Assembly (NCBI GenBank): GCA_041665085.1 | Contig: JBAYJO010000004.1 | Location: 20,004 to 84,003 of the forward strand | Length of the DNA: 64,000 nucleotides | Source: Patescibacteria group bacterium | GTDB taxonomy: Bacteria; Patescibacteriota; UBA1384; JBAYJO01 | Direction of reading: 5' to 3' | In this document: positions 715 to 39,642 of the stretch, piece after piece | Layout of the letters: every line of letters begins with the position of its first letter | Position numbering within the stretch: position 1 is the first letter of the stretch | Notes under the pieces: model-generated | Told to the model about the DNA's origin: nothing | Seen by the model: the letters and a program-made list of their open reading frames with translations, nothing else | The model's database searches: none | Program-made: the position numbers and the translations under genes

Positions 715-726
715 TAGCTAAAACAC

Positions 727-755
727 AAACAGAATCATTTTTATTGATTCCGTTT
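727..755. terminator. Hairpin AAACAGAATCA-N7-TGATTCCGTTT between convergent obg and the minus-strand gene
   Basis: 11-bp inverted repeat with one mismatch. T-run on the minus strand side. A near-identical hairpin recurs at 1712-1742. Confidence 0.5.
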
Positions 756-768
756 GCTGTTGCAGTTG

Positions 769-1530
769 CTAGTTGATCGAGATCACGACATTTCCGGTAG
801 AAATAGAGCCACTTGAGGTATTGAATAAAATGGAATTATTTCCAGTGTCGATAGAAATGTTGACATTGGAATCGTATTGTAGGTCGTTCCAAATTCTGCT
901 GTAATCACCATGGTTGATGCCTACTCGGATTACATTTAATGAATATTCTCCTTGAACATCATTATCGATATAGAATGAATTAGATGGATAATCAGTATCA
1001 TAGAGAACCATTCTTCTTGCATAAACATAATCATTCGGGAAGTAATACCGGTAAGATGGATATCTTCCATAGAGATTGTGACTATTCCAATAGTTGGCAT
1101 TAGGCCTTATTCTGAAAATATTTCTGTTGAAATTTCTGTATCTTCTACCATCATTGTTGAAATGCATTTGACTATGACCTCTGTCGCGATTGTAATTGTT
1201 CCAATTATTCCAATTATTTTGATAATAATTTCTGTCCCTATTTTGGTTATTATTATAACCTCTATTATCTCTATAATTATCTCTTTGTTGATTTTGCCTT
1301 TGATCTGGTCTATTATCTCGATTATCTTGACCTTGTTGATTGCCTCCTTGTTTTGGCTGATTTTCCGTTCGATCTTGATTTTCTCGACCTTGATTTTGTT
1401 GTTGGGTAATATTTTTTTGATTTGCATAATTATCCTGGCTTGTTGTTTGCGTCTCTTTTGCCAGTGCCGAAAAATTTGGTAGAATTGTAATTATAGCAAT
1501 GCTGCTAGCAATAACAAATTTTTTGTTCAT
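769..1530 (-). CDS. secreted low-complexity protein: signal peptide, Q/N/R/D-rich region, conserved about 100-aa C-terminal domain
   Basis: N-terminus MNKKFVIASSIAIITILPNFSALA looks like a signal peptide. RBS AAAGGAGGTGA. The C-terminal region is homologous to the 1772..2428 product. Confidence 0.7.
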   Translation of the reverse strand: MNKKFVIASSIAIITILPNFSALAKETQTTSQDNYANQKNITQQQNQGRENQDRTENQPKQGGNQQGQDNRDNRPDQRQNQQRDNYRDNRGYNNNQNRDRNYYQNNWNNWNNYNRDRGHSQMHFNNDGRRYRNFNRNIFRIRPNANYWNSHNLYGRYPSYRYYFPNDYVYARRMVLYDTDYPSNSFYIDNDVQGEYSLNVIRVGINHGDYSRIWNDLQYDSNVNISIDTGNNSILFNTSSGSISTGNVVISIN

Positions 1531-1711
1531 TTTTTCTCACCTCCTTTCGAATAATTTATATCTTATTGTAGTACTGTATTCAGTCAAAAACATCAGGACT
1601 ATAATGTAAAATATTAATTGGTCGTGGCATTTATTTATTCATTATGAGGATCAACGCAAAAAGATAAAGCCAATAAAATATTAAGGGTAAATAAGTAATA
1701 TGTTACAACAA

Positions 1712-1742
1712 CAAACAGAATCAATATTTATGATTCTGTTTG
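1712..1742. terminator. Hairpin CAAACAGAATCA-N7-TGATTCTGTTTG downstream of minus-strand gene 1772..2428
   Basis: Perfect 12-bp inverted repeat, a paralog of the hairpin at 727-755. Confidence 0.5.
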
Positions 1743-1771
1743 CTTCGACCGATTTAAGTTTTAATTAGTTT

Positions 1772-2428
1772 TTATTGAGCTGAAATGTTTGCATTTTGGT
1801 ATGGCATTTCTCCACTAGATGTTTTTGCCATAATTGAGTTATCGCGGGTATCAACTGATATTTCAGGATTTTCACCATTTTGAACGCCACTGTAAAGTTT
1901 GTTGTAGTAGTCGCTATTAACTCCTACCTTAACTTCATTTAGAGCATAATCACCTTGGACATTATTATTGTCTAAGTAAAAACTATTAGTCGGAATTGCT
2001 ATATCGTAGAAAACGATTCTGCGTCCAAATACATAGTTATTTGGGAAATAGTTGTTATATGCAGGATAAGAATTGTATAATCCATTGTTATTCCAGTAAC
2101 TTGCACATGGATATATTCTCCAGATTGGTCTGTTATACCATTTGTTGTATCCGGCTCCCCATAATGATCCGCCGCCACAACATCGATTATATCCGCCCCA
2201 TCCTCCACCGTACCAATTATTTCCTCCGCATCGATTGCCGCCATGCCAGCTGCCTCTTCCGCCCCATCCTCCGCGGTAATAGGCACTGGCAGAGCCTGTT
2301 GATAAAAATGGTACAATTGACATAATAAGAACTGCTCCAATTGCGATGGCTTTTTTGTTCATTTGTTTATCACCCCCTTTCTTTTGTAGTTTCAAAGCTA
2401 TCTTAATACAAAATATTGACCTATTCAT
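1772..2428 (-). CDS. secreted Gly/Trp/Asn-rich protein, paralog of 769..1530 with a shared C-terminal domain
   Basis: Signal-peptide-like N-terminus. GGWGG/NRCGG repeats. The C-terminus (YPAYNNYFPNNYVFGRRIVFYD...NSFYLDNNNVQGDYALNEVKVG) aligns with YPSYRYYFPNDYVYARRMVLYD...NSFYIDNDVQGEYSLNVIRVG of the neighbour. RBS AAGGGGGTGA. Confidence 0.7.
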   Translation of the reverse strand: MNRSIFCIKIALKLQKKGGDKQMNKKAIAIGAVLIMSIVPFLSTGSASAYYRGGWGGRGSWHGGNRCGGNNWYGGGWGGYNRCCGGGSLWGAGYNKWYNRPIWRIYPCASYWNNNGLYNSYPAYNNYFPNNYVFGRRIVFYDIAIPTNSFYLDNNNVQGDYALNEVKVGVNSDYYNKLYSGVQNGENPEISVDTRDNSIMAKTSSGEMPYQNANISAQ

Positions 2429-2655
2429 TGGAGAGCGTATTAAAAAATAGTTGATTTTATTTTGATTATTTATTTATAATGAGGATGACCGTAAATAGTT
2501 GAAGCCAACATATTGCAATGGATAATCACACAGCCAGTCAGCATTTGATGTTGACAGTTTTTGATATATTTGATAAACTAAATACAGAAGCAAATTTTGT
2601 GGATAACTCGAGGAATAATTGAAAATATTAAACTCCACAATTTAATTTTAGGTTC

Positions 2656-2679
2656 ACTCTCTGAAGCGAGAGTTTTTTG
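2656..2679 (+). terminator. Intrinsic-terminator-like hairpin ACTCTC-TGAAGC-GAGAGT plus TTTTTT in the rpoB leader
   Basis: 6-bp stem followed by T6. A TTGACA-N17-TAAACT promoter-like site lies about 100 nt upstream (2553-2581). Confidence 0.35.
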
Positions 2680-2758
2680 CGTTCCGAAACTATTACATAA
2701 ATAAGTTTAAAAATATTATAAAACTACTCGTAGGAGTTTAACTAAGGATAAGAGGTGT

Positions 2759-5700
2759 ATGAGCGATAGACAATTTTATACCCGCCCATTTTATCAGGTG
2801 CAGCTACCAAATCTGATAAAAATTCAAACCGATTCATATAATTGGTTTTTCACTGAAGGATTAAGAGAGCTTCTAGATGAAATTTCTCCAGTAGATGATT
2901 TTACCGGCGAAATGTATAATCTGGAATTTGGTAAATATACTCTTGATTTGCCAAAGCAAGATGAAATCACTTGCCGAAATAAAAATCTAACCTACAAATC
3001 ATCCCTAAGATGTCAAGTTACATTGACAAATAAGCAGACAAAAACTAAAAAAACTGCTGAAGTTTATCTAGGTGAATTCCCTGTAATGACTCCAAACGGA
3101 ACTTTTATTATTAACGGTATTGAAAGAGTAATCGTCAATCAAATCGTCAGATCATACGGAGTTTTATTTATTGCAGATGAAGTTGCGGGTAAAAAATATT
3201 TTGGTGCTAAAATAATTCCAAATCGTGGAGCTTGGCTTGAAATTGAAACTTCAAATAAAGATGTTATTTCAGTAAAAGTTGACAGAAAAAGAAAAATTCC
3301 AATTACAACATTTATGCGAGCCCTTGGTTTGAGTGATGAAAAAATTAAACAAGCATTTACAGATGTTGATGTTGATGGTGATCATAATTTTATTGAATCT
3401 ACCTTAAAAAGAGATCCAGCCAAAACCTATGAAGAAAGTTTGATAGAAGTTTATAAAAGAATTAGACCTGGCGATCTTGCAACTCCAGAAACTGCAAAAA
3501 CTTTCTTAGACGCTCTATTCTTTAATTTTAAAAGATATGATCTTGGTAGGGTTGGCAGATACAAGCTAAATAAAAGATTAGGAACTAATGTTGACCAAAG
3601 TCTTAAAAATCGTGTTTTAAGAATCGAAGATTTAATTGCTGTTGTAAAGGAAATTATCAGATTAAATAATGATCCAAATGCGGAGCAAGATGATATCGAT
3701 CACTTAAAAAACAGGCGCGTTAGGTCAGTCGGCGAATTGGTTCAAAATAAAATTAGAGTCGGTTTATTAAGAATGGAAAGAATTATCAAAGACAGAATGA
3801 GTGTAATGGAGCCTGAAACAGCAACTCCGGGACAACTGATTAACTCTCGTCCAATTGTTGCAGCTCTTCAAGAATTTTTTGCCTCATCTCAACTTTCCCA
3901 ATTTATGAACCAAACAAATCCGCTTTCAGAACTTGAACACAAAAGAACCTTGACAGCAACTGGTCAAGGAGGTTTGACCAAAGAAAGAGCAAGTTTTGAA
4001 GTTCGTGATGTTCACAGCTCTCATTATGGTAGAATTTGTCCAATTGAAACTCCTGAAGGTCCAAATATTGGATTGGTAAACTATATGGCAACCTATTCCA
4101 GAATCAATGAATATGGTTTTATGGAAACCCCATATCTTAAAGTCGATCAAAAAGACGGAAAAACACAAGTTACAAAAAAAATAGTTTACTTAAATGCTGA
4201 CGATGAAGAGTATGCAATTATTGCACCTTCTTCAGCTCCGCTTGATAAAGATGGTTTTATTACTGTCAAAAAAACTATTGTTAGAAAAAAAGGTGAACCA
4301 ACACTAGAATCAGTAAACAAAATCGAATATATTGATATCTCGCCAAATCAAATTGTTTCTATTACAACTGGTTTAATTCCATTTGCAGAACATGATGATC
4401 CAGTTAGAGCATCAATGGGTTCGAACATGCAAAGACAAGCAGTTCCACTTGTAAAACCTTCGTCTCCAATTGTTGGAACCGGTCTTGAAAAAGAAGCAGC
4501 CCGAGACTCCGGACAGCTTATTATTGCTCAAGAGCCGGGAATTGTTGAAGCTGTATCAGCTTCACAAATCACAGTTAAAAATAGTAAAGGATCCAATCGA
4601 AGTTATAACTTACAAAAATTTATTAGATCCAATCAAGGAACAAGCATCAATCAAAGACCGATTGCAAAAGTAGGTCAAAAAGTTGCTTTGGGTGATGTAT
4701 TGGCAGATAGCTCTTCAACTGAAGATGGTGAAATTGCACTTGGACAAAATTTGCTTTGCGCATTTCTATCATTTGAAGGTTCAAACTATGAAGATGCAAT
4801 CATTATTTCAGAAAGACTTGTTCGTGATGATGTTTTTACTTCAATACACATTGAAAAATATACAATTGAAGTTAGAGATACAAAACTTGGGCCTGAAGTA
4901 ATAACAAGAGATATTCCAAATGTTGGTGATGATGCTTTAATGAATCTTGATGAAGAAGGTATTATTAGAATTGGAGCTGAAATAAATTCAGGTGATATTC
5001 TAGTTGGTAAAATTACGCCAAAAGGTGAATCGGAATTAACTGCCGAAGAAAAACTTCTTCGAGCAATTTTCGGAGAAAAAGCAAAAGAAGTTAAAGATTC
5101 ATCACTTACACTTCCACACGGTGAAAAAGGAAAAGTTGTTGATGTTGTAATTTTTTCAAAAGATGCTGGAGATGAGCTTCCAGCCGGAGTTTATCAAAGA
5201 GTAGAAGTTTCTATCGCGCAAATGAGAAAAATTTCAGTCGGAGATAAATTAGCCGGACGACATGGAAATAAAGGTGTGATTGCGCGAGTTATGCCAATGG
5301 AAGATATGCCTTATCTTGAAGACGGTACGCCAGTTGATATTGTCTTGAATCCGCTTGGAGTTATTTCAAGAATGAACCTTGGACAGATTCTTGAAACTCA
5401 TATTGGTTGGGCAGCACAGAAAAAAGGCGTAAAAGTTGCTTCTCCTGTATTCAACGGTATAAATCTTGAAACAATTAGAAAAGAACTGAAAGAAGTTGGT
5501 TTACCGGAAGATGGTAAGACTCTTCTTTATGATGGTCGTACCGGTAAGCCGTTTGATCAAAGAATTACAGTTGGAATAAATTATATTTTAAAGCTGATTC
5601 ACCTTGTAGACGATAAGATGCATGCAAGATCAACCGGTCCATACTCAATGGTTACACAGCAGCCACTTGGCGGTAAAGCTCAATTCGGTGGACAGAGATT

Positions 5701-37925: not shown

Positions 37926-38846
37926 TCATTCGCTACTCTTATCCGAGTGAAGCTGGCAAGCCAAGCGCTCACGCGCTGCGAGCAAAGACCGAACTGTTTG
38001 CGGTTGCAAACCCGTACTCCAGTATTTCTTTCGATGCTCCCCATTCGCCACTTCGTCTAGGAACTGATCTATTGCGGGTCGAGAAGTAAACCAATGGCCG
38101 CTTTTGCGTTTGGCATGAAGCATTTTGCGGCCAAACATCGTTAGCAGCTTCTTGTATGTAATCTCGATCAGAAGTTCGTGAGCTTGTTCTGAAGAAAGTT
38201 CTCCCTCTTTCTGAAGCCAGTTTCGCTGACCGGCTTTTTGCCGCCTCTTCTTCTTCAGCTCTGGCATGATTTTGGCAATCTCTGGCAGATCCTCCCTCAT
38301 TACAGCCGAACGGCCGAAGATGTCCTCGCCTTTCGCTACTTTGAGAATATCTCTATTCATGTAGTTTCTCAAGCAGTTATCAGAAACACGAAGACCCAAT
38401 TTCTTCAACTCTACGACTGCAGTCGAATAGCTAACCCAGCAACAAACAGCAGTGCTTATACGTAGCGCTTCGTCTGCTTGGACAAACCAGTGCCCACCGC
38501 AAGTACCACGACGATGAGGGTCGAGAACCTTTACTCCAATGATCTTATTGGTATATACAAGATAATTGGGCTTCTTGATCCTGATCAGCTTAGCCAGATC
38601 CGCCAAAAAGCATCCTTCAGCGTGAGACTGTAAGAACTGCCAAACTGTATAAGGCAGGCCATTCACATATTGCACTGTTTCGTCTGGCAATATCGGTTCT
38701 GCACATGACTCGTCTTCATCTACCTCAAGTTCCTTTGCAACAATCGGAACAGGGGCAGACAACTTAGCTCGGCAGCCGATACACAAATCATTGCCTGGTA
38801 TAGCATCGCATAGACAAGATGCATAATTCTTGCATAGTCGAGACAT
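37926..38846 (-). CDS. hypothetical Cys-rich protein in GC-rich foreign patch
   Basis: 306-aa uninterrupted ORF in a patch of about 50% GC. N-terminal CxxxxxCxC...CxxC cluster. No family recognised. Confidence 0.5.
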   Translation of the reverse strand: MSRLCKNYASCLCDAIPGNDLCIGCRAKLSAPVPIVAKELEVDEDESCAEPILPDETVQYVNGLPYTVWQFLQSHAEGCFLADLAKLIRIKKPNYLVYTNKIIGVKVLDPHRRGTCGGHWFVQADEALRISTAVCCWVSYSTAVVELKKLGLRVSDNCLRNYMNRDILKVAKGEDIFGRSAVMREDLPEIAKIMPELKKKRRQKAGQRNWLQKEGELSSEQAHELLIEITYKKLLTMFGRKMLHAKRKSGHWFTSRPAIDQFLDEVANGEHRKKYWSTGLQPQTVRSLLAARERLACQLHSDKSSE

Positions 38847-38983
38847 AGTGAACGCCTCCGTTCGTTTGGTTTGAATAAACCTTAATTAAAATATACAGAA
38901 ATTTCAAGAAATAGCAATACGATAGCAATAATTTATATTCAAAAAATATTATTAAAAATTTCATAAATTTTATATATAATAGT

Positions 38984-39012
38984 TGGACAAAAAGCATATT
39001 AACTGGTATAAT
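38984..39012 (+). promoter_or_regulatory. sigma70-like promoter TGGACA-N17-TATAAT in the AT-rich divergent spacer of the GC-rich patch
   Basis: TGGACA at 38984-38989 and TATAAT at 39007-39012. RBS GAAGGAGG before ATG 39043. Confidence 0.5.
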
Positions 39013-39042
39013 ATATACATTGACTTGAAGGAGGACGATCAC

Positions 39043-39642
39043 ATGTCTCTGTGTTGCAGTAATTGTCAACGCGTTATGGCTCCAAGTACACAACTGCCGG
39101 GTACAGATGGTGTTATCATCACACCAAAACTAGTTGCCAACGGGTTCAAAGTCGAGCAGGGCAGCGATATCATTTGGCATCCGGTATATGCCACAGGACC
39201 GATTGAGGCAGCACTCTGTTTTGAGTGCGTGTTTTCAAAGGGTGTGGAGACTCAACCGGGAAAGATCGCTCTGATCCGAAGAATGTATAAACTCGAGGAT
39301 CATTACTGTGAGTTTCTCAACCTCGCAAAAACTCGCGGTTTGTCTGGACAAGAAAGTACAGAAAGCACTCTGCTAGGGAAGCAGATTACAGAGTTCTGTA
39401 GTCAGCTCGGATTGGCAGAATGTCTTTTCTGCCATGAAACATTGGAGACATTCAAGTCTCCAATGTTCATGGCAAAGATGTTCGATCGATACAAAGCAAG
39501 ACAGTCCCCCGGTTTTCAGCTGACCGGAAACTACCAATGGAGCAACTACGAAACAGGACACTACCTGTTCGGAGTCTGCTTCGGATGCTTCTCGAAACTC
39601 TACCTACCGTCATTGACCAAGCTTGGTTACCTGAAGTCCTAG
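39043..39642 (+). CDS. hypothetical Cys-rich protein (199 aa) in GC-rich foreign patch
   Basis: Strong RBS GAAGGAGG. Multiple CxxC pairs (CCSNC, CFEC, CLFC, CFGC). Hairpin terminator at 39671-39701. Confidence 0.55.
   Translation: MSLCCSNCQRVMAPSTQLPGTDGVIITPKLVANGFKVEQGSDIIWHPVYATGPIEAALCFECVFSKGVETQPGKIALIRRMYKLEDHYCEFLNLAKTRGLSGQESTESTLLGKQITEFCSQLGLAECLFCHETLETFKSPMFMAKMFDRYKARQSPGFQLTGNYQWSNYETGHYLFGVCFGCFSKLYLPSLTKLGYLKS

Follow-up and report, generated by a model that had tools for sequence, protein, structure and literature searches.

Why do two genes in the gap between obg and rpoB stand on the opposite strand from everything around them, and what might their products do? The question is raised by contig JBAYJO010000004.1 of a Patescibacteria group bacterium (assembly GCA_041665085.1), of which we analyzed a stretch of 64,000 nucleotides, hereafter the window, with a guanine-plus-cytosine (GC) content of 34%. 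The window opens inside obg, as judged from Pfam GTP1_OBG and MMR_HSR1 matches; on the plus strand, rpoB starts at position 2759 and is followed by rpoC, rpsL, rpsG, fusA, tuf, rpsJ and a long ribosomal-protein cluster, all in the same orientation. Genes A and B, bounded by obg on one side and rpoB on the other, are the only minus-strand genes from obg to the ribosomal cluster. We find that they are anciently duplicated, real paralogues and that each is a self-contained expression cassette, comprising an upstream block, a leader, a near-perfect Shine–Dalgarno (SD) sequence, a signal peptide, a low-complexity region, a C-terminal domain and a hairpin. Their products are tentatively read here as exported proteins with a structural or adhesive role that would associate with themselves or dock to the envelope, would lack an anchor and would have in the low-complexity region a sticky spacer that evolves fast, a reading to which we give a little less than an even chance.

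Both minus-strand open reading frames (ORFs) listed in a first-pass annotation of this DNA are present (Table 1), and the C-terminal domain that they were said to share holds up in a proper alignment, in which BLASTP finds 59 identities over 119 positions (50%) with an E value of 6e-36. No third copy of the domain is detected in the window by tblastn with either domain as the query. The ORF of B is real, and its start, which had been placed at 2428, is most likely at 2362 instead, because the SD sequence GGGGGTGA and ATGAACAAAAAA at that site align base for base with GGAGGTGA and ATGAACAAAAAA of A. The signal peptides that had been noted in both products are, by inspection, of the classical Sec type: each begins with MNKK and continues with a hydrophobic core of ~15–20 residues and an A-x-A site, ALA followed by KE in A and ASA followed by YY in B. 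The regions between signal peptide and domain, previously described as completely different, are indeed largely unrelated, apart from a weak trace of the pattern NNW..W..YNR that 20 of 1000 shuffles reach equally well. In B, this region is built on an internal duplication (YRGGWGG/YGGGWGG, 21 nt at 90% identity) and carries four Cys within its Gly/Trp-rich stretch.

The description of A and B as a duplicated and diversified secreted family stands with respect to the paralogy, the varied low-complexity regions and the separate cis elements and terminators of the two genes; the claim that the duplication is recent does not. Across 162 aligned codons, the identity between A and B is 59%, 64% and 34% at the first, second and third positions, respectively. 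The proportion of synonymous differences (pS) is 0.86, such that the synonymous distance (dS) is saturated and not computable, and the nonsynonymous distance (dN) is 0.53. With synonymous sites saturated, neutral sequence between the copies should be randomized. The upstream block is nevertheless 79% identical, the hairpins 85% and the start region 12 of 12, which, given this saturation, implies selection or very local gene conversion. We thus read the noncoding repeats as functional cis elements and not as scars of the duplication.

These data also bear on whether A and B are genes at all. Low-complexity, AT-rich sequence may yield spurious or decaying ORFs without function, and the extreme composition, the mirror ORFs that overlap on the other strand and the loss from B of several family-invariant residues would each be expected of such sequence. 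Opposed to this are a dN far below the saturated dS, a confident model of the domain, the conservation of SD sequence, start region and terminators and the occurrence of homologues with the same three parts in dozens of unrelated metagenomes. We consider it very improbable that the pair is spurious, and for A this explanation is effectively refuted. Long ORFs also overlap A and B at 1078-1482 (+), 1107-1427 (-), 1996-2325 (+) and 1999-2340 (-); we rejected these as genes and regard them as by-products of stop-poor low-complexity sequence.

The near-identical hairpins that had been described behind the two genes are confirmed, with 85% identity over 34 nt, stems that are conserved apart from one G-U/A-U change and loops that have diverged. 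The hairpin of A is recovered by a scan for intrinsic terminators (13 pairs, 4 GC, tail GTTTTAGC), and that of B folds equally well, has a weaker tail (TTGTTGTAAC) and is not listed by the scan. The hairpin of A lies 11 nt past the stop codon of obg, which lies on the other strand, and probably ends obg transcription as well. We also considered an integron attC cassette and rejected it: the hairpins are short perfect palindromes without a GTTRRRY core, no integrase-like ORF flanks them and the GC content resembles that of the surroundings.

The conserved motif reported upstream of each gene is likewise real, with its second copy at 2466-2488 rather than 2468-2492. Its 23-nt core occurs in the window at 1631-1653 and 2466-2488 only (0 expected) and extends to a 43-nt block, identical at 34 of 43 positions, with a local score of 46 compared with 22 ± 2.8 in shuffles. 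In the 64 kb, this block is found only before A and B, 100 nt (A) and 103 nt (B) upstream of the start codons, and the leader of ~100 nt that lies between is not conserved. Because folding of the leaders and blocks is no more stable than that of shuffles and reveals no common structure on either strand, and because Rfam gives no match better than E=2 in 600-2900, we interpret the block as a putative DNA-level element, presumably a promoter or operator under which both genes would share control; A and B probably share one regulator or promoter type. Judged by eye, the block fits poorly as a sigma-54, sigma-H or MerR-type long-spacer element. A mini-ORF of seven codons is present on the plus strand of both blocks, at 1640-1663 (ATGAGGATC...TAA, encoding MRINAKR) and at 2475-2498 (ATGAGGATG...TGA, encoding MRMTVNS); we rejected it as coding, as it has no SD sequence and its substitutions are not preferentially synonymous.

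The SD sequences of B and A are the two strongest among the 58 genes of the window, where the median duplex with the anti-SD is -5.7 kcal/mol, the next best is -12.1 kcal/mol and that of tuf is -9.3 kcal/mol. The perfect 8-mer GGAGGTGA occurs once in the 64 kb, as the SD of A, and is found 5–7 nt before the ATG in nine of 10 family genes examined, which belong to organisms of differing GC content. The strength of these sites, as predicted from sequence, points to strong translation initiation of A and B.

Table 1. Coordinates of features at the A/B locus and at compared loci (positions refer to the window unless another locus is named)
Feature	Position	Strand	Details
Gene A	769..1530	-	253 aa
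Gene A, signal peptide, aa 1-24	1459-1530	-	By inspection
Gene A, Q/N/R/D-rich disordered region, aa 25-133	1132-1458	-	
Gene A, C-terminal domain, aa 134-253	772-1131	-	
SD of A, GGAGGTGA	1537..1544	-	Anti-SD duplex -17.8 kcal/mol
Upstream block of A	1631..1690, core 1631-1673	-	Sequence conservation
Terminator hairpin of A (predicted)	725..757	-	13-bp stem, 7-nt loop, then GUGUUUU; -18.7 kcal/mol, z = -4.6
Gene B	1772..2362	-	196 aa
Gene B, signal peptide, aa 1-27	2282-2362	-	By inspection
Gene B, Gly/Trp/Asn/Cys-rich region, aa 28-75	2138-2281	-	
Gene B, C-terminal domain, aa 76-196	1775-2137	-	
SD of B, GGGGGTGA	2370..2377	-	Anti-SD duplex -18.3 kcal/mol, strongest of 58 genes
Upstream block of B	2466..2525, core 2466-2508	-	Sequence conservation
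Terminator hairpin of B (predicted)	1712..1742	-	12-bp perfect stem, 7-nt loop, then UUGUUGU; -18.1 kcal/mol, z = -5.0
Window pair		-	B upstream, A downstream
L009 pair	3-305 (partial gene) and 497-1045 (P0036)		
L009 upstream copy			TGNN>TTNG, FNT>FNS, TGD>ANY
L033 pair	2633-3280 (215-aa gene) and 3305-3811 (P0004)		
L033 upstream copy			TGNN>PDNR, FNT>FYT, TGD>ASG
L013, cold-shock-domain-like genes in obg-rpoB gap	4569-4793 and 4958-5443	-	

To place A and B in a wider family, we ran the search with the shared domain that the first-pass annotation had suggested. An exhaustive HMMER search of 1.84 billion representative proteins with a profile built from the domains of A and B returned 36 clusters at E<1e-3, 15 of them at E<1e-10; A (P0002) and B (P0001) score 7.8e-63 and 2.3e-66 against this profile, which was made from them, and 1.5e-41 and 1.6e-34 against a 32-member profile that also includes them. 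Among the 36, P0006 and P0033 are unrelated repetitive proteins, whose many Pfam matches contain zero passing stretches, and P0027 and P0031 are true relatives with multiple repeats. Most other members are 155–255 aa long with the domain at the extreme C terminus; P0011, P0028 and P0039, the last from a later search, are shorter calls of 69–90 aa. The 32-member profile, run against a set of 5.8 billion proteins, found 14, all "hypothetical," the only named match being a protein from a metagenome-assembled genome (MAG) of the Patescibacteria group. A metagenome scan contributed two further loci. A k-mer-indexed homology search with the A and B profile returned B itself only, and a search of genome contigs with a back-translated family pattern, too narrow to show absence, found no relative. 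Neither Pfam nor NCBIfam matches A, B, the family members or the multirepeat relatives, even at E<=1 for Pfam across 32 members, and a literature search found nothing relevant. The family thus appears, from its sequences, to be rare, lineage restricted and exported, without functional annotation in any source. A phage origin was considered and rejected, as the family has no relatives in IMG/VR or among GenBank phages.

By inspection, all 29 full-length members have the same layout, namely a signal peptide with A-x-A (often followed by Q), a low-complexity region and the C-terminal domain, and none of the 29 contains a lipobox or an LPXTG motif. The low-complexity regions consist of 15.6% N, 12.5% R and 9.6% Y, with only 2.2% K and 1.5% E; K falls to 0.5% in the C-terminal domain of the family, compared with 8.5% K and 8.4% E in the proteins of the window. 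Mutation does not account for such avoidance of lysine when the genome is AT rich. A and B fit this pattern, with an N-terminal signal peptide followed by an N/R/Y-rich, K/E-poor region, as seen by inspection and from composition. Between close orthologues, such as the L003 protein and P0037, the low-complexity regions remain alike, indicating that this part of the protein is constrained over short range and turns over at longer distances.

This composition could also suit an accessory protein that binds the cell wall or polyanions such as teichoic-acid-like polymers, extracellular DNA or minerals, in which the Arg-rich, Lys-free low-complexity region would attach to anionic polymers and the domain would be a carbohydrate- or peptidoglycan-binding module instead of a unit of self-assembly. 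Arg is enriched and Lys avoided in a genome of 34% GC that otherwise favors Lys codons, R-D and R-N dipeptides together with abundant Tyr, Trp and Phe are what sugar-binding surfaces would be expected to show, and a protein without a covalent anchor must be retained noncovalently. The domain nevertheless shows no similarity to LysM, SH3b, CBM, SLH or choline-binding modules (Pfam at E<=1 across 32 members) and has no fold match in the PDB, and we regard a binding protein of this kind as unlikely.

AlphaFold2 models full-length A with a predicted local distance difference test (pLDDT) score <50 for residues 1–137 and a folded part at residues 138–253. The C-terminal domain, ~115 aa long and beta rich, reaches a pLDDT of 84 and a predicted template modeling score of 0.71 when it is modeled by itself with a 32-sequence alignment. 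From the N terminus, it consists of a strand, three short helices within the aromatic-rich segment NYWNSHNLYGRYPSYRYYFP, three strands, an 11-residue helix and four short strands, the last four spanning the DTGNN...FNT...G.I.TGD motif. For the domain model, Foldseek finds no solved structure in the PDB at E<0.3 or a template modeling (TM) score >0.33; no match below E=0.02 is returned for either model in the PDB or for the full-length model in BFVD. Sequence searches of the PDB give chance matches to GFP only (E about 0.2).

What does link the domain to other proteins is its second half, which is homologous to a unit of ~65 aa that occurs in three copies in P0027 and in six in P0031, with domain E values of 1e-12 to 1e-15. 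In the family, the unit follows the pattern N-x-LTGPxSxN ... V-DTGNNT-x-S-FNT-x-x-G-x-I-TGD. On the basis of this homology, the family resembles a single-unit form of a repeat normally stacked in arrays. A profile of the 65-aa repeat alone, too short for a database of that size, found nothing significant in the 5.8e9 set. In one subfamily (P0014, P0015 and P0040; L005 6001-6534, L031 4372-4917), the mature protein begins with Q-x-ITGP(Y/N)S(T/S)N, which duplicates the opening motif of the unit inside the C-terminal domain; this second copy could be a leftover second repeat or a donor-strand-like extension.

In the family alignment, A keeps all of the invariant or near-invariant residues (N55, G59, T94, G95, N97, N102, T103, G106 and G111). 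In B, several are lost: TGNN has become TRDN, FNT has become AKT and TGD has become YQN, so that G95, N102 and G111 are replaced by R, K and Q, respectively. Where the family has LTGPFS, A and B have VQG(E/D)Y. Owing to these losses, B is a degenerate member, as are the upstream copies at two other loci. Tandem pairs in the same orientation occur at three of the ~9 loci with enough context, namely the window and the unrelated metagenome contigs L009 and L033, representing three lineages, and in all three, it is the upstream copy that lacks family-invariant residues. In L033, only ~25–34 nt separate the two genes, and a terminator follows the downstream one. A and B match one another at 124 bits, compared with at most 58 bits between B and any other member, and the L009 pair does so at 89 bits, compared with at most 44 with others; the L033 upstream copy is roughly equidistant from other members (46, 41 and 40 bits). 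The fact that the degenerate copies of the window and L009 are closest to their own neighbors favors separate duplications followed by asymmetric divergence, or else concerted evolution. The recurrence of this arrangement hints that a canonical and a degenerate subunit form a useful combination.

Returning to the structural or adhesive role proposed above, we envisage that A and B would be exported by Sec and cleaved by signal peptidase and would then remain extracellular without being covalently anchored, because they have no lipobox, LPXTG motif or C-terminal transmembrane segment. The C-terminal domain, which contains one copy of the ~65-aa unit, would most likely mediate self-association or docking, a proposal that we make mainly because the family has a single copy of the array repeat. 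The N/R/Y(G/W)-rich, K/E-depleted region could serve as a sticky, quickly diversifying spacer and the whole protein as an envelope or matrix component, be it a coat, a fiber or an adhesive, in which B (upstream, degenerate) and A (downstream, canonical) may act as a minor/major pair. The signal peptides fit the earlier suggestion that these are surface or secreted proteins. A bolder version, which we regard as a long shot, holds that the domain is a new fold and acts as a single "stackable" unit of a beta-repeat, that the proteins build a noncovalent extracellular fiber or coat on Patescibacteria, that B nucleates or caps A as CsgB does CsgA and that the block marks a dedicated regulon. If there were such a fiber or coat, it would be a possible material by which episymbiotic cells of the Candidate Phyla Radiation (CPR) stick to hosts.

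Several observations weigh against the structural or adhesive role. The localization of A and B rests on inspection of their sequences. Their codon adaptation, at 0.58–0.59, is average (0.595 ± 0.074 for nonribosomal genes, compared with 0.674 for the ribosomal reference), and consequently very high expression is unsupported and "very abundant" stays an inference. The block lacks a convincing sigma-70 geometry on the strand of the genes, as TTGGCT lies 21 nt from CATAAT/CATTAT. Nearer to the genes, TTGACT-16-TAAGAT is present for A and TAAGAT at a similar distance for B; in view of these sites, the block may be an upstream regulator site. Finally, no functional partner is apparent in the neighborhoods of the family genes, and ATP-binding cassette (ABC) transporter genes lie a few genes downstream in three of nine loci. 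These neighbors could point to a different role, for example in peptide stress or antimicrobial activity.

Elsewhere, the family genes occupy unrelated neighborhoods, most of those examined having their own terminator hairpin. They follow aminoacyl-tRNA synthetase genes in L001, L005 and L031 and tRNA genes in L003, where a two-component system comes next, and in L032 and L034, they directly precede a small Ogt-like DNA_binding_1 gene and then ABC-transporter genes, of the MacB/FtsX type in L032 and an ABC ATPase in L034. In all, ABC genes (MacB/FtsX-type, ATPase or ABC-2) are found near four loci (L003 8171-12261, L032 1411-3408, L034 2674-3588 and L005 6575-10789) and are not conserved elsewhere.

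One way to accommodate such neighbors is a secreted antimicrobial or effector, in which the variable region is a membrane-active or target-binding warhead, the domain a carrier or targeting module and the tandem diversification the outcome of an arms race with hosts or competitors. ABC-transporter genes of the MacB/FtsX type or encoding an ATPase lie near three loci and ABC-2 permeases near another, the N-terminal part diversifies fast beside a conserved C-terminal domain and the low-complexity regions are net cationic and rich in Arg and aromatic residues, with the four Cys of B set in a Gly/Trp-rich stretch. Patescibacteria are thought to be episymbionts that are obliged to interact with host surfaces. 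On the other hand, the transporter neighborhood is not conserved, the leaders are of the Sec type and not double-glycine or other bacteriocin leaders, the mature proteins measure ~130–230 aa and no immunity, C39-peptidase or modification genes adjoin A and B. The Pfam and NCBIfam scans turned up no toxin family, no PADLOC or toxin-aimed search having been made. We therefore regard an antimicrobial or effector role as distinctly unlikely.

As to why the genes stand where they do, the closest relatives offer a comparison. Over its N-terminal 300 aa, RpoB shares no more than 65% identity with the proteins of MAGs labeled Berkelbacteria, Saccharibacteria or Patescibacteria group. In the nearest relatives (L010-L012), rpmA lies directly upstream of rpoB, and in L013, which shares 65% identity over the same part of RpoB, rpoB is preceded by obg and two cold-shock-domain-like genes on the opposite strand (Table 1); the secreted-protein family is absent from the region upstream of rpoB in all four. 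In this lineage, the gap between obg or rpmA and rpoB thus seems to serve as a variable slot for small genes on the opposite strand. The pair had been said to lie where rplKAJL would normally precede rpoB, a view that these relatives do not bear out, as they have rpmA or obg and cold-shock-like genes there; rplKAJL is found nowhere in the window. Recent horizontal transfer of A and B was considered and rejected, since the GC content of the cassette fits the surroundings, except for a stretch of Gly codons.

On the plus strand, the block of B overlaps a sigma-70-like TTGATT-18-TATAAT (2451-2480) directed at rpoB. Downstream of this site and within ~280 nt upstream of rpoB are two terminator-like hairpins with T-runs, at 2537-2555 and 2656-2673 (+). 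The promoter-like site and the hairpins may form an rpoB leader or attenuator. Farther into the window are genes for two Cys-rich hypothetical proteins without a Pfam match, at 37926-38846 (-, 306 aa) and 38983-39642 (+, 219 aa). The first of these genes, one of a small number outside the pair on the minus strand, ranks third in the window for SD strength.

The Patescibacteria, or CPR, account for much of bacterial diversity, and their cells are believed to live in attachment to others. Their surface proteins are, to our knowledge, almost entirely uncharacterized. If A and B are envelope or adhesion components, they would provide a handle on the attachment of CPR cells to their hosts; otherwise, a clean, new domain family still becomes available for annotation. 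In immediate practical terms, the gain is modest, consisting of a corrected gene start, a duplication shown to be old and noncoding repeats recognized as cis elements with a function. The novelty of the family is that it has no relative of known function or structure; small exported low-complexity tandem proteins as such are familiar. What is unusual is the combination of a modeled domain without a match, an Asn/Arg/Tyr-rich makeup that is nearly free of Lys, exceptional SD sequences and recurrent pairs with a degenerate upstream copy.

The nearest system for comparison is formed by the multirepeat secreted proteins P0027 and P0031, whose unit reads N-x-TGPxSxN ... ANTGxN ... NTxxGxxxTGD. They have the signal peptide and the unit in common with the A/B family. 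What sets them apart is the tandem arrangement of the unit and the absence of two features, the N-terminal, aromatic-rich half of the domain and the low-complexity region rich in N/R/Y. As P0027 and P0031 are likewise without a Pfam, NCBIfam or PDB relative, this link gives an architecture and not a function.

The suggestion that the products are bacteriocin-like is unlikely in light of their Sec leaders, the length of the proteins (155–255 aa) and the lack of adjacent immunity or processing genes. The hallmarks of a class II bacteriocin or microcin locus, namely a dedicated leader, a peptide of <10 kDa and adjacent genes for immunity and ABC/C39 export, are missing from A and B, whose mature proteins of ~170–230 aa follow Sec leaders with an A-x-A site. 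The GGWGG/NRC stretch of B resembles Gly- and Trp-rich antimicrobial peptides and class II bacteriocins in composition, and export is common to both. B differs from these peptides in being far larger, in having a Sec leader and a conserved folded domain and in lying at a locus without an immunity or transporter operon.

Possible counterparts of the structural or adhesive role proposed here are the functional-amyloid and fiber subunits of other bacteria, namely CsgA and CsgB of curli, TasA and TapA of Bacillus and the chaplins of Streptomyces. A and B have no sequence or fold similarity to these proteins: neither they nor the 32 family members match Curlin_rpt (PF07012), TasA or chaplin entries in Pfam, Foldseek gives no match and no csgB-, csgEFG-, sipW- or tapA-like genes lie beside them. 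Unlike these systems, the A/B domain is modeled with an alpha-helix and with a helical N-terminal part rich in aromatic residues. The resemblance, an analogy, would lie in the general design. Curli, TasA and chaplin-type proteins are small, exported by Sec, without an anchor and rich in Asn, Gln, Gly, Ser and Thr in a strand-turn-strand arrangement, as proposed for A and B, and they include pairs in which a major subunit and a divergent minor paralogue are encoded side by side, an organization that A and B may parallel.

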